From Candidatus Thorarchaeota archaeon (GTDB lineage: Archaea > Asgardarchaeota > Thorarchaeia > Thorarchaeales > Thorarchaeaceae), in assembly GCA_029858305.1 (NCBI GenBank), contig JAOUFI010000038.1, positions 1 to 19,600 of the forward strand: a stretch of 19,600 nucleotides of DNA, read 5' to 3'. Shown here one piece after another: positions 116 through 19,600 of the stretch. The notes below the pieces were generated by a model. The model saw only the letters and a program-made list of their open reading frames with translations, did no database searches and was not told where the DNA came from. Numbering within the stretch: the stretch's first letter is position 1; the number at the start of each line of letters is the position of its first letter. A program made the position numbers and the translations under genes.

Positions 116-505
116 CTACTTGAAGTCTTTTGGGCTTATGCTGCCATAGCGTGTAGCAAAACCATAGGTTGGATTTGTAGTTGCATAGATAACGACCGCG
201 AAGGCTGTTATGAGGAGGACTAGGCATATAATACGACATATCATCCTATCTAGAAGGGACGATCCAGCTGCAGGCGTATAAAGTGTATCATCAAGGGGTC
301 GATCTATAGAGGCTCGTATCTCGTTTTTATCCAGACCGATAGCTAATCCAAGGTTCTCGATTTTTACCAGATGTTCTGTTTTAGGTTTGGTAATTCCAAT
401 TAGCTGTTCGATGCCAGATCGAATCCTTAACGGGAGATTTGATTTTACCCTCCAGTACCCAAAAGTAATATTTTCCAAGCTCTTCAATACCATGTCATCA
501 AACAT
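116..505 (-). CDS. Tail-anchored membrane protein, 129 aa, with C-terminal TYG/RYG motifs; putative radical SAM (splicease) substrate, paralog A
   Basis: The ORF track gives 116..529, but the ATG at 505 (MFDDMVL) aligns with the paralog start (MFDIVVL) and lies at the same 26-nt distance from the duplicated promoter. Soluble N-domain, one hydrophobic helix (IICLVLLITAFAVVIYA), tail NPTYGFATRYGSISPKDFK. About 40% identical to 623..1018 by manual alignment. Confidence 0.85.
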   Translation of the reverse strand: MFDDMVLKSLENITFGYWRVKSNLPLRIRSGIEQLIGITKPKTEHLVKIENLGLAIGLDKNEIRASIDRPLDDTLYTPAAGSSLLDRMICRIICLVLLITAFAVVIYATTNPTYGFATRYGSISPKDFK

Positions 506-529
506 GTGAAACCATATTGTATCAATCAC

Positions 530-558
530 GAATAACCTTTGCGAACTGCGAATTTCTA
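530..558 (-). promoter_or_regulatory. Duplicated BRE/TATA-like promoter, copy 1 (TTCGCAAAGGTTATTC on the minus strand)
   Basis: 530-545 is identical over 16 nt to 1043-1058. The TTATT box ends 26 nt upstream of the ATG in both copies, typical spacing for a leaderless archaeal transcript. Confidence 0.65.
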
Positions 559-603
559 AGACTTCATTTTTCGTTCAATATAGTATAAGCAGTATGAATC
601 CTG
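556..603 (-). pseudogene. Remnant of the 3' end of a radical SAM/SPASM gene
   Basis: Translates to QDSYCLYYIERKMKS*, versus QDPYCLRHIEHMMKE* at the end of 1069..2118. 9/15 aa and 32/48 nt identical, ungapped, at the same 513-nt offset as the promoter and paralog starts. Confidence 0.8.
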
Positions 604-622
604 TAACATCACCGATTTTGTT

Positions 623-1018
623 CTAACTGAAGTCGTTCGGGCTAATACTTCCATATTTTGCTCCTGGAGTATATACACTAACCTGATTCGCAACGATAAA
701 GTAAGTAGCAATAACAGCCGCAACTAAGATGATTATGCATAGAAGACGGCATATTACCGTGTTAAAAAGAGTAGACCGAGTCATGGGCATATGGCCAGTA
801 CCCACAATAGGTGGGCTCGTTGCGGACCTAATCTCGTTCCTTTCAAGACCTATCGATAGACCTAGGTTCTCAATCTTTTTGAAATCCGTCTTTGTGAGAT
901 AAGAAATTCCCAGAAGGTTCTCTAATTCGGATCGAATCTCAGGTGGAAGGGCGAGTTTTATCTTCCAGTATCCAAAAGAAATACTTGCCATAATCCTCAA
1001 TACCACGATATCGAACAT
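623..1018 (-). CDS. Tail-anchored membrane protein, 131 aa, with C-terminal KYG motif; putative radical SAM (splicease) substrate, paralog B
   Basis: ATG-started ORF. Shares FGYW, KIENLGLxIGLxxNEIR, ICRxxC and YGSISPxDF with 116..505. Single C-proximal hydrophobic helix. Confidence 0.88.
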   Translation of the reverse strand: MFDIVVLRIMASISFGYWKIKLALPPEIRSELENLLGISYLTKTDFKKIENLGLSIGLERNEIRSATSPPIVGTGHMPMTRSTLFNTVICRLLCIIILVAAVIATYFIVANQVSVYTPGAKYGSISPNDFS

Positions 1019-1042
1019 CAGTGATTATGTTGCTTTTTCCAT

Positions 1043-1071
1043 GAATAACCTTTGCGAATTACGAAATCCTA
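1043..1071 (-). promoter_or_regulatory. Duplicated BRE/TATA-like promoter, copy 2
   Basis: GAATAACCTTTGCGAA at 1043-1058 matches 530-545 exactly, with the same spacing to the ATG at 1018. Confidence 0.65.
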
Positions 1072-2118
1072 TTCTTTCATCATATGTTCAATATGGCGCA
1101 AGCAATACGGATCTTGATGTAGTGCTCCTGCCATAGTATATGAAACTGAAGAGCATCCTCCCTTGCAGAGGTTTCTGAAGGTACAGCTTCGACAATGACT
1201 ACTAGTATCATTATGATTGGTATGACGTGCGAACGAGAAAGAAGCATCATCATTCCATATTTCTTTTAATGGTCTGGTCCTGATACTTCCTTCAATGAAG
1301 TCATCTCCCAGAGCAAGGCAGCCCAGGATATTTCCATTGCTTTGAATTCCCAATGTCGTTATTCCTGCTTGACAGCCATACCATCCTTTTACTTGTAATT
1401 CGGGAAGAACGGTGGAGTAATACCCCATGTCATGAGCCCCAGCAACAAGAATCTCTTTTTGATACTTTTTTTTGGTGGCTGCAATGAATAGGGCTAGTGA
1501 GTAGAATTCATCTGTTGACAATACATGCTCTCGCTTCAGCCTGCCAAATGGCGTAGCCATCTGAATCTGCCATGCAATGCCTTTTCCCAAAAGAAATTCT
1601 CGTATCTTAACCAGTTGGTGGAGATTTAACTTGTGAACAGTCGTTATAGCAGTGGTCGGAAATCCCAGTTCTGCATAGTTATCAAGAGCTGCTGTTGCTC
1701 TCTCAAAGGAACCTTTCACTCCTCTAATCATATCATGGACTGCTGCCTCTCCTCCATCTAGGCTGACTGTGACACAATCTGGTGAGAGATAGGTCAGCTG
1801 TTTTGTAATCTCTTTATCCTTCCCTAGCCACCCGTTAGTAATGATTGAGAGAGCCATGCCCAGATCATTAACACGTTGGGCAATTGTATACCAATGAGGA
1901 TGAAGGAAAGGCTCTCCGCCCATGAGTGCAACTCCCAAACATCCTATGTCCTTCAGACCCTCGCAAAGTTTCAGTGACTCCTCTAAGGTAAGCTCGTTTT
2001 CCCGTTTTCTACCTGCATTTGAGCCGCAGTGAATACAGTTGAGATTGCAGGCAAGAGTTAGCTCCCAGACTGCACAGTGTGGTCCCGGATACTTCCGCTG
2101 TTTCCTTACCTTCTTCAA
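1069..2118 (-). CDS. Radical SAM/SPASM-domain enzyme, PlpX/splicease-like peptide or protein maturase
   Basis: CxxxCxxC in VWELTLACNLNCIHCGSNAG; GGEP motif; VSLDG; SPASM cysteines GCQAG...GNILGC...CRSC...CKGGC...DPYC. TTG start directly preceded by GAAGGGAGGG. Confidence 0.92.
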   Translation of the reverse strand: MKKVRKQRKYPGPHCAVWELTLACNLNCIHCGSNAGRKRENELTLEESLKLCEGLKDIGCLGVALMGGEPFLHPHWYTIAQRVNDLGMALSIITNGWLGKDKEITKQLTYLSPDCVTVSLDGGEAAVHDMIRGVKGSFERATAALDNYAELGFPTTAITTVHKLNLHQLVKIREFLLGKGIAWQIQMATPFGRLKREHVLSTDEFYSLALFIAATKKKYQKEILVAGAHDMGYYSTVLPELQVKGWYGCQAGITTLGIQSNGNILGCLALGDDFIEGSIRTRPLKEIWNDDASFSFARHTNHNDTSSHCRSCTFRNLCKGGCSSVSYTMAGALHQDPYCLRHIEHMMKE

Positions 2119-2157: not shown

Positions 2158-2574
2158 CTACTCGTCCAAGTACTTGGTTGGAATCTCTCTTGTGGTTGCC
2201 ACTAGTTCTAGTGCAGCCTTTGTGTAACGCATGACCTTACCCATGTCGCCGGTTAATCTGAACTTCCTCGCCATGATTCCCTTGATGGGATCAATCTTCC
2301 CATCAAAGAGCAATTTCCAGTTAGTGAGAGGTCCTGCATACATAAACTCAGCAGTATCTTTCGGGTTTGCCATTCTTGCTGCCCTGCACTTGCCATGCCA
2401 TAGGTCAAGGTAGAATCTTACATCCTCTTTGATTGTATTTCCATCAGCATCAATCTGGAAGACAAAGTCTCCTTCCCATGTCTTCGCCGCATCCTCATAC
2501 CTTGCATTCTTGTTCAGGGCTTCAACGTACTTCTCTATCCACTCATCAGAGGGAAACACAAGTTTCTCGGTCAT
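2158..2574 (-). CDS. SCP2 sterol/lipid-binding domain protein
   Basis: FPSDEW..., WEGDFVF, YLDLWHGKC and W..L.DGKIDPIKGIM..KF.L.GDM.KVMRY are typical of archaeal SCP2 proteins. ATG at 2574 (TTG at 2577 is an alternative start). Confidence 0.9.
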   Translation of the reverse strand: MTEKLVFPSDEWIEKYVEALNKNARYEDAAKTWEGDFVFQIDADGNTIKEDVRFYLDLWHGKCRAARMANPKDTAEFMYAGPLTNWKLLFDGKIDPIKGIMARKFRLTGDMGKVMRYTKAALELVATTREIPTKYLDE

Positions 2575-2723
2575 CAAGAGTCCGCTCCAATGATCTAAGA
2601 TGATATTGGTGAGAGAAAAGGATTCCGACTAGTATCTCAGATGATTCTGAGAGCACGAATGAATCTTTATCACGATTGACAGATGATATCAATCTATGGA
2701 CAATGCCCCCTCAAGTCACCTTT

Positions 2724-3395
2724 CTAACAGCGATTCAGAAAATAACTCGGTTCAACAACATTTAGATCAAAGTCTGAGGCTATCTTTTTACCGTAGTCCA
2801 ACTGTCCGATGGTTTCCACAGAATGAGAGTCACTGCCAAGGGTGAAGATGCAATCATACTCCTTAGCTCGTTCTATGAAATGTGTATGTTCAAGGATATA
2901 TCTTTCATTAAGCTCTATTGCAATTCCTGTTTCTGCTAATACTTGAGCGGCCAAATCACCATCTTCCTCTCGATAAGAAGAAAGGAAGCCATCCCAATGA
3001 CCTAGGACATGGAATTGCTTTTTCTTCACAACCTTTGAGAGTATAGAGACCCATTGATAGGAATCTAAGACCCAATGAAAGGATCCTATGACGATATCGA
3101 ACTGCTCAAGCCCTCCTGCAACTGGAGCAAGACTACCATCCGATTGAATGTCAACCTCAACGCCCTCGAGAATCGCCAAGGATGGAAACTCTAATCGCGC
3201 AGTCTCAATATCCCTTCGTCTGTTTTCTATTATGTTCTTTCCACCTTGACATGAACCTAATGAAGGCCAGAAATGATCCGCTACTACTGCTGTTTCAAGA
3301 TTAATTGTATTTGCTCGACTAGCAATCTCATGGACACTTGATTTGCCATCAGAGTAGTCTGAATGTATATGTAGGTCATAGCGCGTGTTCTGCAT
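2724..3395 (-). CDS. PHP-domain metallophosphoesterase (HisJ/YcdX/PolX-PHP-like)
   Basis: YDLHIHSDYSDG, ADH, GVEVD, IGSFH, LGH, IELN and LGSDSH metal-ligand motifs. Confidence 0.92.
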   Translation of the reverse strand: MQNTRYDLHIHSDYSDGKSSVHEIASRANTINLETAVVADHFWPSLGSCQGGKNIIENRRRDIETARLEFPSLAILEGVEVDIQSDGSLAPVAGGLEQFDIVIGSFHWVLDSYQWVSILSKVVKKKQFHVLGHWDGFLSSYREEDGDLAAQVLAETGIAIELNERYILEHTHFIERAKEYDCIFTLGSDSHSVETIGQLDYGKKIASDFDLNVVEPSYFLNRC

Positions 3396-3568
3396 CGTAC
3401 ATCATTTCCAGGCAGAGCGCAATTTAACTCAACCTCTACCCATTAATTCAACCAAAACAGGTGGAAATTATTGAACAGCAACAATGACGCACAAGGTAAT
3501 GCATAAATCGTGCCCTTTCGACTGACAAAAGCAATTTACAACAGATGCGTGATTGGGTTGCGGATATC

Positions 3569-4468
3569 ATGGACGAGCTGGATAAGAAGCTAATGGCAGT
3601 TCTTGAAAAAAATTGCAGGATCACCTATCAGGAACTCTCTCGTAGGTATGGTGTTTCGGCAAATGCCATTCGAAGACGGGTCATGAACCTTGAGGAAACT
3701 GGAGAAATTTCCAAGTATATTGTGGCCCTCTCTATCGCCATGACAGGTTCCAGCCAGCTCTTTGGATTCCTTACTGGAGATGGTTCTCGTGATGAAGTGG
3801 AGATGATTGACGAGATGGGGTCCCATCAAAATATTATAGCATCAGCAGCCTATTCCAATGGTACCTATGCATTTGTTGGCAATTATGACACCACCCAAGA
3901 AATGCATGATATCAGTTCTTATCTTAGGAGAATCAAAGGTGTCCTAAGTGCAGAGATTCATCCGACCATTATTCCATCAGGACAAGGGATGAATCTGACT
4001 CCATTGCATTTACGAATACTCAAAGTCCTAATCGAGGAGCCACGGCTCCCTATCGTTGAAATTGCAGAAAAGAGTGGTCTTACTTCGCGACGTGTGCGCC
4101 GGCTACTCGGACAACTCGAAGAGAGTGGTGCTGTTCAGTTCAGAGCACTTCTCGAACTAGGCGCAGATACAAGCATTCCCTACATTGCCAGAATTCGCTG
4201 GGATGAGCGTTCGACCAACTATGAATCCATGATTGAATGGCTCAAACAAAAGTACCCTCTTTCTTCGTGGGAGAATTTCGTTTCTGCTATAGAACCAGTT
4301 TTGTTTGCCCTCTTAGCAGGAGAGAATCTAACTGAAGTGAATGAGACAACTCGGGAGATTCGTAGGCATCCTCATGTGGAGAGTGTCATTACGACCACCT
4401 GTACGTATCACAAGTTCTTCCGTAACATACGACACGAAAAACTACTTGAATTGATCAGAAATGTTTGA
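3569..4468 (+). CDS. Lrp/AsnC-family transcriptional regulator with two tandem HTH+RAM units
   Basis: MDELDKKLMAVLEKNCRITYQELSRRYGVSANAIRRRV, and a second HTH LHLRILKVLIEEPRLPIVEIAEKSGLTSRRVRRLL. Start probably 3569 (ORF track: 3545). Confidence 0.9.
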   Translation: MDELDKKLMAVLEKNCRITYQELSRRYGVSANAIRRRVMNLEETGEISKYIVALSIAMTGSSQLFGFLTGDGSRDEVEMIDEMGSHQNIIASAAYSNGTYAFVGNYDTTQEMHDISSYLRRIKGVLSAEIHPTIIPSGQGMNLTPLHLRILKVLIEEPRLPIVEIAEKSGLTSRRVRRLLGQLEESGAVQFRALLELGADTSIPYIARIRWDERSTNYESMIEWLKQKYPLSSWENFVSAIEPVLFALLAGENLTEVNETTREIRRHPHVESVITTTCTYHKFFRNIRHEKLLELIRNV

Positions 4469-4574: not shown

Positions 4575-4598
4575 ATGAACCATTAAACGGTGAATACA

Positions 4599-5507
4599 AT
4601 GTCTACAACTTTCAAAACAATCATGAGCGACATGAAATCAAGCCTCCATCTCGCATGGGGAAGTGCCTTGAGCTACTTCCTTGCGAATCTAGGTATGGTC
4701 ATCGTCGTTGCAATCCTAGCGGCTCTGATTGCTCTTCCGATACTATCAGTAGTCCTTCTAGCATTATGGCCTTTTAACGAGGCTACTATGACTGCCCTGA
4801 CTCAATGGGCAACTGCTAATCCTCTTGGCGTGGCTGCTCTGATCGGAGTTATAGCAATTCCTATCATTTCCCTCTTCATGGTTGTGAGCGGATCTATCTA
4901 TGGCATGAGCTATGACCTTGTGGCTAAGGGTGACACCAAGGCTGAGGCAGCATTCTCCTATCTCCGTCACAAGTTCCTTACCTTCTTTGCTACAGGTGCT
5001 ATGTTGACCATCATTGTCCTCCTCCCGCCTGCTTTTGCCTGGGAACTGGCCGCTTACGCCATGAACATCAATATCGGACCGTATGTGGGTGCTCTACTGA
5101 CAGCTTTCACATTCGTGTGGATCTTCTTCACTGCTGGACTGACCTCTATGGTATTTCCAGCTGTTGTGAGAGGCAAGGGTGTTCAGACTGCCTTCAAGGA
5201 GTCATTTACTCTGGCAAGAAGCCACTTTGATCGCATATTCGGAGTTCTAAGCGCGATTGTGCTATTGCTTGCAGTTACTTTCGGTCCCATAGTAGTCCTT
5301 GGACTCGCTATGCCTTTCGTGAGCGTACCTATATCGATAGCTCTGGTTCCAGCTATTGCTGCTGCTGCACTGTGGACAGTTGTTTCAGCTTTCCTCTGGC
5401 TGTTACTCTTCCTACCAATGGTGAGGATAGTCTGGGTAAAGGTCTATCAGGAACTGACTGGTGGTAACATCGCAACACAGAGTGTTGTCGACATGCCTAT
5501 CGTATAG
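4599..5507 (+). CDS. Multi-pass membrane protein of unknown function, paralog 1
   Basis: About 6-7 hydrophobic segments. ATG at 4599 is preceded by a GGTGA SD (ORF track uses GTG at 4590). Shares SYxLA, GMxxxxV, GLxSMxFPA and FDRxFGV with the next gene. Confidence 0.85.
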   Translation: MSTTFKTIMSDMKSSLHLAWGSALSYFLANLGMVIVVAILAALIALPILSVVLLALWPFNEATMTALTQWATANPLGVAALIGVIAIPIISLFMVVSGSIYGMSYDLVAKGDTKAEAAFSYLRHKFLTFFATGAMLTIIVLLPPAFAWELAAYAMNINIGPYVGALLTAFTFVWIFFTAGLTSMVFPAVVRGKGVQTAFKESFTLARSHFDRIFGVLSAIVLLLAVTFGPIVVLGLAMPFVSVPISIALVPAIAAAALWTVVSAFLWLLLFLPMVRIVWVKVYQELTGGNIATQSVVDMPIV

Positions 5508-5581: not shown

Positions 5582-6523
5582 ATGAAAAACGCGAGCGTTC
5601 GAATAATTCTTGATGATTTGAAGGTCAGCTTCAAATTTGCATTAAAGAATGTGATCTCCTACATCCTCGCACTATTTGGTGTTCTCATCATCTCAGGAAT
5701 TCTTCTCGTCTTCGTGGCAATTCTAATCTTTGTTCCTCTATTCTTTGGTGTTGGCATTGAGGGACTAATATTCTTCTTTGAATCCGTTGTTGCCGATCCT
5801 AGTACTGGCTTCGCAAACATCCTTGTTGGAGGTCTTGCAATTGCACTTCCTCTTGCTGCTCCCTTCTTTGTAGCAATTGGTGCTCTCTTTGGTATGGGCC
5901 GTGAAATTGTTGAGAGCGAGGGAACAAGTGCAGAAGGTGTCTTTACCTGGTATAAGAAGAAGTTCTTCTCACTTGCAGGAGGCGGACTCGTACTCTTCCT
6001 TGTTGTGCTTGGTCCTCTGATTCTAGTAATATTAGGTGGAGTTGCAGTTTTCGGGATTGATTTCTTTAACTTCGCACTCATATCGAGTGGTACAGCAAGC
6101 ACCATGAATCCTATTATTGGTGCGGTGCTAATGATCTGGTTTGCGGTGAGCCTAGGACTTCTCTCGATGCTCTTTCCAGCCATAATCGATGGATATTCAG
6201 TCTTTGGAGCTACTAAGAAATCTATACGGTTGAGTATCACGTACTTCGACCGAGTGTTCGGTGTGTGGATGGCATACCTGCTCATCTTAGGTGCATTGAT
6301 TCTCCCATTTATTGTAACTGCGTTTACAATGAGCTCATTTGAACCAGCACTTATCTTGCTAGGCAGTATGGCAGTTCCTGCAATATTGTTCCTAATATTC
6401 ATCTTCATGCCAGCCTTGACAATCGGGCTTACACGAGTCTACATGATCTTGACAGCTGATGATGAGTATGAGGAACATCCACAGGAAGACACGTCTGGGC
6501 CTAACTTCATAGGAGGTCTATAG
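5582..6523 (+). CDS. Multi-pass membrane protein of unknown function, paralog 2
   Basis: ATG preceded by AGGTGTGA; hydrophobic helices; motifs shared with 4599..5507; acidic C-terminal tail. Confidence 0.85.
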   Translation: MKNASVRIILDDLKVSFKFALKNVISYILALFGVLIISGILLVFVAILIFVPLFFGVGIEGLIFFFESVVADPSTGFANILVGGLAIALPLAAPFFVAIGALFGMGREIVESEGTSAEGVFTWYKKKFFSLAGGGLVLFLVVLGPLILVILGGVAVFGIDFFNFALISSGTASTMNPIIGAVLMIWFAVSLGLLSMLFPAIIDGYSVFGATKKSIRLSITYFDRVFGVWMAYLLILGALILPFIVTAFTMSSFEPALILLGSMAVPAILFLIFIFMPALTIGLTRVYMILTADDEYEEHPQEDTSGPNFIGGL

Positions 6524-9438: not shown

Positions 9439-10434
9439 ATGCGAGTCGCAGTGATTCTAAATACAAGAAGGGACGAGTCTGAGTTCGAGGTCGAGTATGA
9501 TCCTCCTCATACGATTGAGATGATCAAACACGGTATCGAGGCCGCAGGACACGAGTACCTCTTTATTGAGGGCAATGAAGGTGTTCTAGAAAGTCTCCAA
9601 CGAGAAAGACCCGATTTGGTCTTCAACAGATCTGAGGGAGTGCGTGGAGAGAGTAGAGAGTCTCATGTCCCAGCAATCATGGAAATGCTTGGAATCCCCT
9701 ATGTGGGGGCGAATGTCCTCACTACAGCAGTATGCCTTAACAAAGGTTGGACAAAGAAAGTGCTGTCCTACCACGGTATCCTGACGCCTAAATTCAACAT
9801 TGTTTCAAGCCTTGAAGAAGTCGATTCTATCAAGTTCGAATATCCTGTTATACTCAAACCAAATGAGGAGGGATCTTCAGTAGGCATTAATGAAGACAAC
9901 GTGGTACACAACATAACCCAGCTCAAGGCTAAATTGAAGGATATGCTGAGTGAATATGTGCAATCAATCCTCATTGAGCAGTTCATTGAGGGAAGAGAGT
10001 TTAGTGTGGGCATTCTTGGTACTCCTGAAGGACCTCCAGAAGTTCTCCCCATTGTTGAGATCGATTTCACAAATATGCCTCCAGAGGTTGGTGGAGTGCT
10101 TGGGCAGAGGGCTAAAACAATACTAGATGACCTAAGTCATTATGTCTGCCCCGCAAAGATAGATGCAAAGACTAAGGGGCGCATTGAAGAAATCACACTT
10201 GATGTCTGCAAATACCTTGAGGTGCCAGACTTCGGCCGAATTGATTTCAGGATGGACAAGAAGGGGCGGATTTTTTTCCTTGAAATCAATCCCCTCCCGG
10301 GCATGGACTTTGATCTTGAAGAGCAAGATATCTCATTCTTCCCGTTCATGGCAAAGCAGGGAGGATACACCTATGATGAGCTCATCCGTAGATTACTCGA
10401 GTCTGCAATACACAGATATGGTCTGAAAAAATAG
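9439..10434 (+). CDS. D-Ala-D-Ala ligase-like ATP-grasp enzyme
   Basis: DLVFN.SEG..GESRE, GIPYVG, LNK, YPVILKPNEEGSSVGI, IEQFIEGREFSVGILG, GRIDFR, FLEINPLPG. The N-terminus (EYDPPHTI) lacks the GGxSxE motif of true Ddl. Confidence 0.9.
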   Translation: MRVAVILNTRRDESEFEVEYDPPHTIEMIKHGIEAAGHEYLFIEGNEGVLESLQRERPDLVFNRSEGVRGESRESHVPAIMEMLGIPYVGANVLTTAVCLNKGWTKKVLSYHGILTPKFNIVSSLEEVDSIKFEYPVILKPNEEGSSVGINEDNVVHNITQLKAKLKDMLSEYVQSILIEQFIEGREFSVGILGTPEGPPEVLPIVEIDFTNMPPEVGGVLGQRAKTILDDLSHYVCPAKIDAKTKGRIEEITLDVCKYLEVPDFGRIDFRMDKKGRIFFLEINPLPGMDFDLEEQDISFFPFMAKQGGYTYDELIRRLLESAIHRYGLKK

Positions 10435-15471: not shown

Positions 15472-18400
15472 TTATGCCACAATCTTGACAGGCTTCAGGT
15501 TCACAATCCTGTGCTCGCCCTCGACACTGTCATACTCGACCATGCCCACCAGTTCGCCTTCAGCGCCTGGCTGGAGCTCGAAGTCTATCTCGGTAACAGA
15601 GACCGTGTCCGGCTCCACTGTACCAACTGCTTGACTCTTGATGGTGTCAGTCAGGTCGGGAACACCCAGCACTACCTGCACGTTCTGCATGGGGACCTTC
15701 GAGCCGTTCCGAATTACCACACCGAAGATGACCTTTCCACCGCGTATCTTGTACTCCACAGCCACATCCATACCTGGTTCGAGACCGAGGCTTGCAGGTT
15801 CTGAGGTGGTCACGTACTCCTCTACAAAGTAACGCTCTCTCACACGTTTGATGCCCACAGCGGCTCCGAACACACCCACGATGGCGAAGAGTAACAACCA
15901 GATCCAATGCACGGTGGGCATGAAGTCTGCTCCATCCATAATTCCGTCGCCATCTGTGTCTGCGACCAAAGGATCCGTACCATAGACCATGACCTCCTGG
16001 AAGTCTGAAAGTCCATCTAAATCTGTATCAGGCATGAGCGGGTCAGTTCCATAGACGTTTAACTCTGCGCCATCTCCAAGACCTTCACCGTCCGTGTCAT
16101 TGTTCATTGGGTGAGTGAAGCTCGTGAAGACTTCGAAATAATCACTCAAGCCATCTTCGTCTCCATCCCTCGAGTTTGGATCGGAATCATAGGTGAAGAC
16201 TTCATCGTAGTCTGAGAGATTGTCGAGGTCTGAGTCTACCGAGTTCGGATCGGTATCGTACACAATAATCTCCTCATAGTCGGATAGCTGGTCTCCATCA
16301 GTATCTGTGCTATTTCCATTCGTGTGGTATACCATGATCTCTTCATAGTCTGATATGAGGTCTCCATCGGTATCGTCGCTCAAGGGTGATGTCCCATACA
16401 GTAAGTATTCAGCACCATCAAGAAGGAGATCTGAATCCGTGTCCGGATTATCAATTCCCGTTCCCAAGGATATCTCAAGGCCATCTATCAAATCATCATT
16501 ATCGAAATCTGGATCAAGTGGTAGGGTATGGTATATCCTCAGCTCTTCTAGATTAGTCAGTCCATCTGAATCTGAATCCCATTCACCATCCATTACACCT
16601 GTATGTGTCATGTTCGTCAGAGGATTGGTGTTCGTAAGAACAACTTCCTCATAGTCTGTGAGGAAGTCTGAGTCTGTGTCATTGAGCAGGGCTGAGGTCT
16701 TATAGTCCAGAATCTCCTGTCCGTCATCAAGTAAATCTCCGTCTGTATCTTTCAGAATTGGTGACGTGCCATACTGATCCACTTCATCAAAGTCGGTGAG
16801 CCGATCCTGATCTGTGTCTTGTTTGAGTGGGTCAGTGAAGTAGTCATTAATCTCTTCACCGTTCGAGAGACCGTCTTGGTCCTCATCATCATTATAGTCC
16901 GAGACACCATCATCATTGCTGTCAGGGTTTCTCGGATCGGTTTCAGTCAGGACACATTCCTCCCAATTGGTAAGGAGGTCTCTGTCTTCGTCATCTAGAC
17001 CGTCAATCTTGCCATCTCCATCACTGTCAGCGAGTCGTGGATTGGTCTTGGTCAGCACTATCTCATGGTAGTTAGTTAGCATATCCCCATCTATGTCCCA
17101 ATCCGCATCAGAAACAGTGTTCCTCTGAGTACTGAATAGTGTGGGATCTGTTCCGGTCTTATTGCTCTCTTGGAAGTCTGTGAGACCATCCATGTCAGTG
17201 TCAGTCTTACGTGGATTGGGATACACCCACCGACTCTCCACTACTCCACTAATGTTGAAGGTCATATAGATCCCATTGACCTCTTGATTATCGAAGAGAC
17301 CATCTCCATCAGTATCTGCACGTAGGGGTGATGTGTTGTGGATGTTCAGTTCTGCACCATCTCCAAGAGTATCTCCGTCTGTATCAAACTGGAGTGGATC
17401 AGTTTCAAACACCTTGATCTCATCATAGTCTGAGAGTAGATCATTATCAGTATCTGTGTCGTTCAAGAGAGTGTGCCATGTCAGGGCTTCCTCTGAGTCT
17501 TCAAGCCCATCACCATCGGAGTCTCGCGAGAGAGGATCACTTGACCAATAATAGAGTTCGTCCCGATCACTGAGCCCGTCTCCATCTGTATCCATTTTTG
17601 TTGGTGAGGTTTCGCTAACGAAAATCTCATAGTAGTCTGATAAGAGGTCTCCATCAGTGTCTATCAGAGTACAGTTGGTTTCATAGAGGTAAATCTCGTC
17701 GAAGTTGCTGATACCATCGCCATCCTGGTCATCAAGGTCATCTGGAATTCCATCACCGTCTGTGTCATTTGTATCGGGCAGCGTGTGACTATTGAATAGC
17801 TCATCAGCATCTGCAAGATTGTCATGATCTGTGTCTGGGTCTAAGGGATTTGTTTCGTAGATGTTGACCTCGTCTCCATCACTGATGGTATCAAAATCTG
17901 TGTCCCAATTCTCCCAGTCTGTGCCGTTCTCGATCTCTTCCTTGTCATTTAATCCGTCTTGATCTACATCTGCTTGGGTTGGGTCGGTGTCATAGACCTG
18001 CCACTCATCCCAATCTGATAATCCATCTCCGTCTGTGTCGTTTAGTCTGGGATCTGTGCCCAAGTCTATCTCTTTCTTGTCATTGATCAAGTCATTGTCC
18101 GTGTCTGCACTGTTGGGATCTGTGTTGTAGGTATTCCATTCATCCCCATCGCTCAACTGATCTCCATCTGAGTCCCAAGCAGTAGGTGATGTCATCGACA
18201 CATAGACCTCTGTGTAATCATCCAGCCCATCCGAATCCGAATCTGTTCCACTGAGGTCGGTGTGCCATATTGTCCATTCATCAAAGTCACTGAGACCGTC
18301 ATTATCTGAATCGATGTCTGTGGGCGACGAACCACTCGTAAACACCTCAAAACCATCCCAAAGACCATCTCCGTCAGAGTCCACATTCGTCGCATTAGAG

Positions 18401-19600
18401 TGGTAGCCATAAATCTCGATGACATTATTGAGACCGTCACCATCGTTGTCGAGTTGTCCATCCAGCGTTCCATTACCATTAGTAGAGGCAAGGAGTGGAT
18501 TTGTGCCTAGATACTCGATTTCAACGTAGTCATCCAATTGATCTCCATCAGTGTCCCGTAATGTGATGTTTGTCCCGTATAGAATCTCATCAAAGTCTCC
18601 GAGAAGATCCCCGTCAGTATCATTCGATAATGGATTTGACCCATAGGTTAGGACTTCCAGCCCATCATAAATTCCGTCATTATCGGTATCAGCGTCGCCA
18701 GCATCAGTATCATAGATGTCTACTTCGTCACCATTACTAAGAGAGTCCCCATCACTATCATAGTCATAGTCCGATATTCCATACGTCATGTTGTTTAGAG
18801 GATTTGTGAGTGTGACATTGACCTCTATGAAATCACTAAGGAGATCAAAGTCTGAGTCAGGATTCCACGGGTCCGTGAAGTAGTCTTCGACCTCTTCAGA
18901 ATCGAGCAACCCGTCCTCATCACAATCTGCTATGAGTGGTGATGTTCCGTAGAAGTACTCCTCGGCGTCATTAAGCCCATCCTGATCTGTATCCGCCTCA
19001 AAGGGTGAGGTCTCGTTGGGATCGACGATACCATTCACATTGACATCCTCACCAATCTCCCCTAAGAGTGGTTCATAGATACCGTTTCCATTCTCATCAA
19101 ACCAGCCATCATAGAGTGTATCTCCATCTGAGTCCGCATTAGTGGCATTCAATCCGAGGTCGATCTCGAGTCCATCTCGGATGCAGTCTCCATCTGTGTC
19201 CCAGTTGGTGCAGTTTGTATCGTAAGTGCGAATTTCTTCGATATTCGTGAGACCATCATTATCCTGATCATCCTGCCCATCTAGGATTCCATCATCATCT
19301 ACATCTGGGTCTGTGGGATCTGTGAAGGTGTCAAAGACCTCCTCTGCATCTGTTAATCCATCAGAGTCTGTATCAGCAATAAGTGGATCACAGTCATTCA
19401 GGAGTTCATCTAGATTGATGAGGTCGTCATTATCAGGGTCTTCTTCCCAGTCAAATACGCCGTTATCGTTTGTGTCATTATATTGCGGATCGGTGCCGGT
19501 CATCTCGACTTCGAACCAGTTGGGGAGCAAGTCGCTGTCCTCGTCATCGTAATAATCAGAGATTGTATCGCTGTCCGAGTCTGTCATGTTAAACCAGGTG
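15472..19600 (-). CDS. Very large acidic cell-surface protein with thrombospondin type 3-like Ca-binding repeats, a C-terminal TM helix and a cytoplasmic beta-sandwich; 5' end lies outside the window
   Basis: The frame is open to the window edge (ACC TGG TTT AAC ATG). About 57 DxDxDGLxD-type repeats by manual count, many N-glycosylation sequons, TM helix WIWLLLFAIVGVFGAAVGI followed by KRVRER, then about 115 aa of beta-rich sequence. Confidence 0.92.
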   Translation of the reverse strand, partial: TWFNMTDSDSDTISDYYDDEDSDLLPNWFEVEMTGTDPQYNDTNDNGVFDWEEDPDNDDLINLDELLNDCDPLIADTDSDGLTDAEEVFDTFTDPTDPDVDDDGILDGQDDQDNDGLTNIEEIRTYDTNCTNWDTDGDCIRDGLEIDLGLNATNADSDGDTLYDGWFDENGNGIYEPLLGEIGEDVNVNGIVDPNETSPFEADTDQDGLNDAEEYFYGTSPLIADCDEDGLLDSEEVEDYFTDPWNPDSDFDLLSDFIEVNVTLTNPLNNMTYGISDYDYDSDGDSLSNGDEVDIYDTDAGDADTDNDGIYDGLEVLTYGSNPLSNDTDGDLLGDFDEILYGTNITLRDTDGDQLDDYVEIEYLGTNPLLASTNGNGTLDGQLDNDGDGLNNVIEIYGYHSNATNVDSDGDGLWDGFEVFTSGSSPTDIDSDNDGLSDFDEWTIWHTDLSGTDSDSDGLDDYTEVYVSMTSPTAWDSDGDQLSDGDEWNTYNTDPNSADTDNDLINDKKEIDLGTDPRLNDTDGDGLSDWDEWQVYDTDPTQADVDQDGLNDKEEIENGTDWENWDTDFDTISDGDEVNIYETNPLDPDTDHDNLADADELFNSHTLPDTNDTDGDGIPDDLDDQDGDGISNFDEIYLYETNCTLIDTDGDLLSDYYEIFVSETSPTKMDTDGDGLSDRDELYYWSSDPLSRDSDGDGLEDSEEALTWHTLLNDTDTDNDLLSDYDEIKVFETDPLQFDTDGDTLGDGAELNIHNTSPLRADTDGDGLFDNQEVNGIYMTFNISGVVESRWVYPNPRKTDTDMDGLTDFQESNKTGTDPTLFSTQRNTVSDADWDIDGDMLTNYHEIVLTKTNPRLADSDGDGKIDGLDDEDRDLLTNWEECVLTETDPRNPDSNDDGVSDYNDDEDQDGLSNGEEINDYFTDPLKQDTDQDRLTDFDEVDQYGTSPILKDTDGDLLDDGQEILDYKTSALLNDTDSDFLTDYEEVVLTNTNPLTNMTHTGVMDGEWDSDSDGLTNLEELRIYHTLPLDPDFDNDDLIDGLEISLGTGIDNPDTDSDLLLDGAEYLLYGTSPLSDDTDGDLISDYEEIMVYHTNGNSTDTDGDQLSDYEEIIVYDTDPNSVDSDLDNLSDYDEVFTYDSDPNSRDGDEDGLSDYFEVFTSFTHPMNNDTDGEGLGDGAELNVYGTDPLMPDTDLDGLSDFQEVMVYGTDPLVADTDGDGIMDGADFMPTVHWIWLLLFAIVGVFGAAVGIKRVRERYFVEEYVTTSEPASLGLEPGMDVAVEYKIRGGKVIFGVVIRNGSKVPMQNVQVVLGVPDLTDTIKSQAVGTVEPDTVSVTEIDFELQPGAEGELVGMVEYDSVEGEHRIVNLKPVKIVA
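15925..19587 (-). repeat. Coding tandem repeat array: long units of about 22-23 aa (DTDxDGLxDxxExxxxxTDPxxx) and short units of about 12-13 aa
   Basis: Directly visible in the translation; degenerate at the DNA level. Confidence 0.9.

Follow-up and report, generated by a model that had tools for sequence, protein, structure and literature searches.

The stretch of DNA analysed here (the window) is the whole of contig C8, 19,600 nt, from a 205-contig, 88.9% complete genome of Candidatus Thorarchaeota. Near its beginning it encodes a radical S-adenosylmethionine (SAM) enzyme with a SPASM domain and, directly downstream, two small paralogous proteins, here called small1 and small2. Conservation among homologs and a predicted complex indicate that these are very probably an enzyme and its substrates, with an invariant tyrosine in the small proteins as the residue acted on. 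PlpX-type spliceases excise tyramine from X-Y-G, leaving an α-keto-β-amino acid. By analogy, the favored reading of the whole is a posttranslational modification (PTM) cassette in which a splicease reaction would generate a surface ketoamide aimed at proteases; this reading is given a probability of about 0.42.

Four co-oriented minus-strand genes occupy positions 116–2577 in the list of open reading frames (ORFs): an SCP2-domain gene, the radical SAM/SPASM gene and the two small genes. A first, sequence-only reading had described a radical SAM/SPASM gene directly upstream of two paralogs about 40% identical; the ORFs are as it stated, and small1 and small2 are 42% identical (BLASTP E 2e-38). 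Their tails share [K/R]YGSISPxDF, which forms part of a 15-residue core, Y-x-P-G-[TS]-X-Y-x-[ST]-[IV]-x-x-x-D-F, with X immediately before the candidate modified Tyr (position 0). Codon counting reproduced exactly the positions it gave for RYG (143–151), TYG (161–169) and KYG (650–658). The TYG site that it had called extra is present, but is the conserved upstream Tyr of the core at –6 and not an additional motif. The features are as follows.

1069–2118, minus strand: radical SAM/SPASM enzyme, 349 aa (Pfam Radical_SAM E 2e-25, SPASM E 2e-8).
623–1018, minus strand: small1, putative precursor/substrate paralog 1, 131 aa, with an N-terminal recognition domain, one transmembrane helix and a C-terminal core.
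830–874, minus strand: leader motif of small1, residues 49–63, IENLGLSIGLERNEI, an instance of the family-wide [IL]GxxxGLxxxE[IV] helix.
689–745, minus strand: transmembrane segment of small1, residues 92–110 (best 19-aa Kyte–Doolittle window 3.0).
629–673, minus strand: core of small1, Y116–F130, YTPGAKYGSISPNDF; candidate modified Tyr Y122, X = K121.
116–505, minus strand: small2, putative precursor/substrate paralog 2, 129 aa from ATG, with an alternative GTG start at 529.
188–244, minus strand: transmembrane segment of small2, residues 88–106 (Kyte–Doolittle window 2.87).
122–166, minus strand: core of small2, Y114–F128, YGFATRYGSISPKDF; candidate modified Tyr Y120, X = R119.
1043–1058, minus strand: 16-nt box TTCGCAAAGGTTATTC, 24 nt 5' of the small1 ATG.
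530–545, minus strand: second copy of the 16-nt box TTCGCAAAGGTTATTC, 24 nt 5' of the small2 ATG.
2158–2577, minus strand: SCP2-domain gene, directly 5' of the enzyme gene (Pfam SCP2 E 4e-12).

Each small protein has one strongly hydrophobic 19-aa segment followed by a 21–23-residue tail, and the next-best Kyte–Doolittle window is at most 1.3. Both have the features of tail-anchored proteins, namely a single transmembrane segment near the C-terminus and no N-terminal signal peptide. No Pfam or NCBIfam family was assigned to them. An ESM Atlas search gave no usable feature match, and its structural matches all had TM scores below 0.5. The 16-nt box matches exactly twice in the 19.6-kb window against 0.01 expected, a count of two that 0/200 shuffles reached. 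Since its spacing is identical before both ATGs, the ATG at 505 is more likely to be the start of small2 than the GTG at 529. The box is promoter-like, and its placement suggests that each paralog has its own promoter. An RNA source was sought among 22 sequencing runs, and none was listed.

The case for a substrate role begins with the tail. Thirty-three homologs of the small proteins were gathered by hidden Markov model (HMM) rather than by motif, and their mean column identity is 25%. The only invariant columns are G57, Y116, Y122, P127 and F130. As tail residues are invariant among homologs collected in this way and so divergent overall, the shared tail is not a chance resemblance. The leader is conserved as well, with G53, G57, L58 and E62 of the N-terminal helix invariant or nearly so. 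Nif11 and NHLP are absent among the 16 Pfam families matched at E ≤ 1 by these 33 proteins, and no family recurs in more than two of them.

The core was then surveyed in 117 unique examples. The regular expression used for this census fixed positions 0, +2, +3, +7 and +8; beforehand, 9 of 115 ORFs matching a looser expression had been removed by a stricter one as likely chance matches. The residue after Tyr (+1) is G in 56 cores, S in 30, A in 11, Y in 11, F in 6 and another residue in 3. It tracks lineage, being Ser in 30/31 Promethearchaeota and Tyr or Phe in 16/18 Elusimicrobia. Invariance of YG had been proposed as a check, the cores of the window carrying KYG and RYG; family-wide the Tyr is invariant and the Gly is not. 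X shows a different pattern. It is R in 40 cores, L in 30, K in 14, Y in 14 and F in 12 (R, K, L, F or Y in 110/117), and it differs between paralogs in 33/33 loci with at least two cores, while +1 differs in 3/33. The usual paralog pair has one basic and one hydrophobic X; the window has K and R. By its pattern of variation, X appears to behave like a specificity residue.

The enzyme was folded together with small1 using purpose-made alignments, with three controls. The model reached an ipSAE of 0.76 (0.75–0.80 across runs) compared with 0.02 for the best of the three controls; the mark for this score was reached by 58/80 solved complexes and 2/110 mismatched pairs. At least 71% of contacts were common to the runs, and the pLDDT of the partner was at least 67. 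As modeled, leader residues 7–69 of small1 lie on enzyme helices 203–218, 234–244 and 344–348, with the lowest-error contacts at small1 residues 45–67. Tail residues 122–130 (YGSISPNDF) meet barrel residues 15, 17, 64, 66, 91, 93, 114–117, 154–158 and 180–184. In this prediction the leader sits on the enzyme and the tail enters the barrel, and the model supports binding. The proposal that the small proteins are substrates gains from this predicted placement of the tail. AlphaFold models of splicease–precursor pairs from the Piel group place XYG in the splicease active site, according to the accessible text of both reports (PMC11414181, PMC11626197). The binding mode modeled here mirrors those pairs as they are described there (PMC11414181).

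The enzyme has the CX3CX2C core of radical SAM proteins and a SPASM domain; C24, C28, C31 and the SPASM cysteines are invariant in its family. Its best NCBIfam models are TIGR04103 (202.1 bits, cut-off 725) and TIGR03913 (175.9 bits, cut-off 591.75), followed by AhbD (146, cut-off 500), MftC (141, cut-off 265), TIGR04133 (131, cut-off 425), NirJ2 (127, cut-off 500) and PqqE (107, cut-off 381). Models for WgkB, DynA and the KxxxW cyclase score below the splicease models. TIGR04103 and TIGR03913 were the top two models in 12/12 diverse family members; for TIGR04103 the best E-value was 2.3e-68, with no score near the cut-off. The enzyme is outside every curated family. The likeness to TIGR04103, TIGR03913 and TIGR04133 suggested in the first reading holds up as a ranking, with scores of 202, 176 and 131 bits that are far below the respective cut-offs of 725, 592 and 425.

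An IQ-TREE tree of 43 rows placed the family relative to reference enzymes. The control genomes held no true TIGR04103 member, so reference spliceases were drawn from annotated plasmids: a Nostoc "nif11-class peptide radical SAM maturase 3" and two Azospirillum "GDL motif peptide-associated" maturases. Plasmids also supplied an Aureibacter enzyme found beside three DUF1843 peptides, PqqE, MftC and a Rhizobium heme-like protein, and five bacterial genomes provided the AhbD- and AhbC-like rows. The tree has one clade of named spliceases (support 100/99) and a second one for the enzyme family (100/99). Joined by one Agathobacter enzyme, the two make up a larger clade (99/97), outside which lie the Ahb clade (97/96), PqqE and MftC. 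L22, G32, A35, R39, Q184, Q186, W246 and G266 are identical in 25/25 family rows and 5/5 splicease-clade rows and in at most 2/12 outgroup rows; Q184 and Q186 belong to the WQIQ motif of the enzyme. Other residues, I158, A188, Y206, F211, G227, A228, S235, S260, L268, E276 and E344, are invariant in the family and absent from the spliceases. In the tree, the family stands beside the named spliceases as a distinct sister clade with good support. The expectation that the enzyme would side with spliceases rather than heme or cofactor radical SAM enzymes is borne out by the HMM ranking in 12/12 members and by the 99/97 clade, in a tree that holds no NirJ. The enzyme is not PlpX-type in the strict sense, as it falls outside the named-splicease clade and reaches 202 bits where the cut-off is 725.

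Conservation of the gene cluster was assessed across genomes. A word-based search with small1 recovered only small1, and a whole-genome profile search was used instead. A profile of the two paralogs, run over 60 related genomes at E ≤ 1e-7, found homologs in ten: 9/27 of the same genus and one of the same family. The small genes always occur in two to four tandem copies in these ten Thorarchaeota relatives, and the order of radical SAM gene, then small genes, holds in 10/10. The adjacency of the radical SAM gene to small-protein homologs, proposed earlier as a check, is therefore found in all ten relatives fetched. Directly 3' of the small genes, again in 10/10, is a gene for a methyltransferase/TPR protein of about 430 aa. 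It is a class I SAM-type methyltransferase with an N-terminal MKLNIGCG motif, Pfam Methyltransf_23/11 matches and a helical/TPR C-terminal half. A truncated methyltransferase without motif I, suggested by the Pfam matches, was rejected because the alignment shows the MKLNIGCG motif at the N-terminus. In the genome of the window, contig C107 begins with the last 170 aa of this protein, and the next gene on C107 shares 81–83% identity with the one located after the methyltransferase in relatives. As this start and this next gene match the order in relatives, the cassette spans an assembly gap and continues from C8 on C107. The contig ends at window position 1, so the first reading missed the methyltransferase/TPR gene. 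The SCP2 gene lies 5' of the radical SAM gene in 9/10 of the Thorarchaeota relatives but in only 7/79 of the wider loci described below; it was rejected as a cassette member and is a lineage-specific neighbor.

A scan of one genome per species found 558 relatives of the enzyme, and the wider counts given here rest on the best 79 loci of these 558. At least one core-bearing ORF is present in 63 of the 79, the methyltransferase in 56 and both in 50. Neither was found in ten, several of which are short or cut. The 79 loci come from Thorarchaeota, Promethearchaeota, Thermoplasmatota, Elusimicrobia, Desulfobacterota and Nitrospiraceae. Among genomes sampled from the phylum of the window, the enzyme family occurs in 71/301, and in 20/90 of the high-quality ones. 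The cassette is common in this phylum and is present also in Thermoplasmatota, Elusimicrobia and Desulfobacterota. In the cassettes inspected, no gene for a peptidase, an oxidase or a PqqD/MftB-like chaperone is conserved, and no small PqqD-like (Y protein) gene was among the cassette ORFs listed. Some Thermoplasmatota cassettes have two side-by-side radical SAM genes of the enzyme family with three to five precursors (L058:3929-4978, Thermoplasmatales; also L052, L047, L077 and L059), and in the tree the second copy falls within the family (100/99). In Elusimicrobia the lipoprotein precursor is followed by a conserved protein of about 315 aa to which neither Pfam nor NCBIfam assigns a family (L060:7801-8748 and ten further loci, 11 in all).

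The precursors of every lineage examined have the N-terminal helix motif [IL]GxxxGLxxxE[IV] in common, while the segment between leader and core varies. This segment is a transmembrane helix in Thorarchaeota, Hermod- and Promethearchaeota. Thermoplasmatota precursors, 57–80 aa long, have nothing between leader and core and no transmembrane segment. Elusimicrobia precursors have a lipobox-type signal (LAAC and similar) at this place. In 5/5 precursors from Desulfobacterota and Nitrospiraceae, a signal peptide and a Kunitz_BPTI domain precede a core with X = K or R. The Kunitz_BPTI matches have E-values from 5.6e-15 to 8e-4, one of them at 19.9 bits, just under the 21-bit gathering score, and all five domains have C-K-[AG] at the P1 site. 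The methyltransferase is missing from 4/5 of these Kunitz loci and so is not obligatory. When 1.84 billion representatives were searched with a profile, 105 clusters matched at E ≤ 1e-3; some of these are soluble precursors with two to five tandem cores. Such multi-core soluble precursors resemble the typical architecture of peptides made on the ribosome and then modified posttranslationally (RiPPs).

Taken together, the first reading was confirmed as a sequence observation. Its interpretation is supported for splicease kinship, adjacency of the genes and predicted entry of the tail into the barrel, and not for invariance of YG or PlpX-type membership. The following course of events would account for the data. 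The cytoplasmic radical SAM/SPASM enzyme would bind the N-terminal leader helix of each small protein, thread the C-terminal core into its barrel and act on Y122 of small1 or Y120 of small2. By kinship, the most likely reaction is that of a splicease. Since leader and core are on opposite sides of the transmembrane helix, modification would have to take place before membrane insertion. The modified protein would then insert in tail-anchored fashion, as suggested by a transmembrane helix only 21–23 residues from the C-terminus, with the N-terminus inside and the modified 21–23-residue tail outside. An outward-facing core, as proposed at first, fits the bacterial homologs, in which a signal peptide or lipobox between leader and core would likewise put the core outside the cell. 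The methyltransferase/TPR protein would add an unspecified tailoring step.

Splicing would turn X into the side chain of a ketoamide, that is, into a P1 residue, and this ketoamide, displayed on the surface, would act against proteases. As X is Lys or Arg in this genome, the targets here would be trypsin-like. Published spliceotide ketoamides inhibit serine and cysteine proteases, according to the available portions of two reports (PMC11626197, PMC11414181). The idea of a protease inhibitor is strengthened by the Kunitz fusion in all five Desulfobacterota and Nitrospiraceae precursors. Tyramine splicing is favored because of kinship, the behavior of X and these fusions, and by analogy it is tentatively taken as the reaction. 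Protease inhibition is a similarly tentative assignment of function.

Several points weigh against splicing and its proposed use. In the tree, the enzyme falls outside the named-splicease clade, and its score is well short of the TIGR04103 cut-off (202 against 725 bits). Known splice sites are X-Y-G, but Gly follows Tyr in fewer than half of the cores (56/117). The conserved [ST] at +2, [IV] at +3, D-F at +7/+8 and second Tyr at –5/–6, like the methyltransferase partner, were not found described for spliceotides and could mean a different Tyr-centered reaction. The constancy of 0, +2, +3, +7 and +8 among the 117 cores is itself partly by construction, since the census expression fixed these positions. 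References in the tree were few (one TIGR04103, two TIGR03913, and neither NirJ, TIGR04133 nor sactisynthases), with outgroups on long branches. The positive-inside signal around the transmembrane helix is weak, so the proposed topology is drawn from analogy. Finally, the methyltransferase, absent at most Kunitz loci, is not an obligatory partner.

Alternatively, the same enzyme–substrate pair could perform another Tyr-centered chemistry, with the methyltransferase completing a so far undescribed PTM. Examples would be modification of a β-carbon, or a C–C or C–O crosslink joining the Tyr either to the conserved Ser/Thr at +2 or to the Tyr upstream. The lack of a conserved Gly at +1, the additional conserved core residues, the separate clade of the family with its own invariant residues and the methyltransferase in 56/79 loci all fit such a reaction, and aromatic crosslinks are known from other radical SAM/SPASM enzymes, as the accessible text of one report indicates (e.g. 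PMC11851443). Nevertheless, by HMM and tree the nearest characterized relatives are spliceases, with WgkB, DynA and the KxxxW cyclase lower. A hypervariable X, different between paralogs at every locus compared, is readily explained as a warhead under splicing and less so under a crosslink, and the Kunitz fusion fits a protease inhibitor. A different chemistry is possible, with the odds somewhat against it. Rather unlikely is its fuller form, in which a non-splicing enzyme and the methyltransferase would install an undescribed Tyr-centered modification on a portable 15-residue module, with X as a programmable specificity position. Archaea and bacteria would then attach this core to membrane anchors, lipoproteins, Kunitz domains and multi-core peptides.

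Two further explanations give the small proteins another role. They could be precursors of a diffusible cofactor or signal cut from the core, in the manner of PQQ (PqqE) or mycofactocin (MftC). A radical SAM/SPASM enzyme, a conserved Tyr near the C-terminus and a methyltransferase are all present, a relationship to MftC and PqqE can be detected (141 and 107 bits), and soluble multi-core precursors exist. The tree nevertheless sets the family apart from PqqE and MftC, the cassettes inspected lack the conserved peptidase, oxidase or chaperone gene noted above, a cofactor would not tolerate a variable X, and membrane anchors, lipoboxes and Kunitz fusions indicate a product that stays on the protein; a diffusible product is very unlikely. 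Equally, the small proteins might be membrane partners or regulators rather than substrates, with the radical SAM enzyme acting elsewhere, for example on a lipid from the SCP2 protein. The small proteins are indeed membrane-anchored, and a gene with this lipid-carrier fold is directly 5' in the window and in most Thorarchaeota relatives. SCP2 is, however, rare in the wider loci, the Thermoplasmatota homologs have no transmembrane segment, the conserved part is the 15-residue tail that sits inside the barrel in the model, and the enzyme belongs to a peptide-modifying clade. This role is highly improbable.

No published description of the cassette was found in the splicease/spliceotide, archaeal, Asgard RiPP, DUF1843/TIGR03913/TIGR04103 and Kunitz–radical SAM literature; the classification of Scott et al. 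2022 (Chem), outside that coverage, may list bacterial members. Within the Asgard and RiPP literature, one matching preprint concerns bacteriocin homologs. The available part of a review reports the survey of Scott et al. 2022 as covering 189 bacterial genera and speaks of bacterial genera only (PMC10849128). If tyramine splicing is correct, these would apparently be the first archaeal spliceotides and the first natural ketoamide warhead in membrane-anchored proteins rather than released peptides. The constant difference in X between paralogs, taken with the Kunitz fusions, suggests a family of inhibitors with programmable P1 residues guarding the cell surface against proteases. Should the reaction be other than splicing, it would be new radical chemistry on tyrosine, and the portable-module reading would imply that modified proteins of a new class are displayed on the surface and are common among Asgard archaea. 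In either case the compact 15-residue core could serve as a protein-engineering tag, like existing splice tags.

Other genes of the window were recorded in passing. At 3545–4468 (plus strand) two tandem AsnC/Lrp-type winged-helix HTH domains are encoded (HTH_24, E 6e-24), divergent to a PHP-domain gene at 2724–3395. Adjacent genes at 4590–5507 and 5582–6523 (plus strand) encode very hydrophobic, multi-transmembrane proteins of about 305–313 aa without a Pfam family. A D-Ala-D-Ala ligase-type ATP-grasp gene lies on this archaeal contig at 9439–10434 (plus strand; Dala_Dala_lig_C, E 7e-36); its neighbors are a GNAT acetyltransferase gene, which comes after it, and a gene for a PLP-dependent enzyme, which it faces. 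At 15472–19599 (minus strand) an ORF that runs off the contig end encodes more than 1371 aa, with many bacterial thrombospondin type 3 (TSP3) repeats (E 1e-43).

The cassette can be set beside four known systems. TIGR03913 "GDL motif peptide-associated" radical SAM enzymes with DUF1843 peptides, from Azospirillum and Aureibacter plasmids, give the second-best model at 176 bits. They are alike in having several tandem small precursors beside the enzyme and a Tyr followed by G, A or M, and in the Aureibacter cassette a class I methyltransferase adjoins the enzyme. It was considered as a homolog of the cassette methyltransferase and rejected (no HMM match, BLAST E 0.49). They are unlike in that the score here is below the 592-bit cut-off and that DUF1843 peptides carry the Tyr N-terminally, ahead of a helical domain, in an order opposite to that found here. 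Kunitz/BPTI inhibitors (PF00014) are connected with the cassette through bacterial members of the precursor family, in which a bona fide domain with Lys at P1 immediately precedes the core; the small proteins of the window have no Kunitz domain, and the link to proteases is through fusion in distant homologs.

Closest by curated model, at 202 bits against the cut-off of 725, are the type I spliceotides PlpX/PlpY/PlpA and PcpXYA (TIGR04103). The enzyme shares with these spliceases the signature residues HCG...A..G..R, WQxQ and W..GCQAG. Unlike them, the cassette has no Nif11/NHLP leader (0/33 small proteins), and no Y protein gene was seen in it. We take IPR026482 to correspond to TIGR04103. 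PlpX is a member of IPR026482, according to the accessible text of one report (PMC11002830). On a Nostoc plasmid (L116:3645-3914), a Nif11-type precursor beside a true TIGR04103 enzyme ends in ...ALYGLPPELF, loosely like ...RYGSISPKDF, which may be coincidence. A Tropicibacter oceani plasmid (L123:1680-5011) carries a splicease-clade radical SAM gene (540 aa) and, directly after it, genes for a trypsin-like peptidase and an M23 metallopeptidase, with no small precursor annotated.

The binary (Y-protein-independent) spliceotide systems of Rheinheimera, RhaX/RhaA, RcsX and RasX, consist of a radical SAM/SPASM enzyme and a precursor only, without a PqqD-like Y protein, as described in the available portions of the reports (PMC11414181, PMC11626197), and are alike in this respect. 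They also share a leader helix predicted on the enzyme, X-Tyr in the active site and a variable X, and their products are reported there to be protease inhibitors. The Thorarchaeota cassette differs in its sister-clade enzyme, its fixed 15-residue core that is not always Y-G and its archaeal hosts. Its precursors, moreover, are membrane-anchored, lipidated or Kunitz-fused, and a methyltransferase/TPR gene usually accompanies them.

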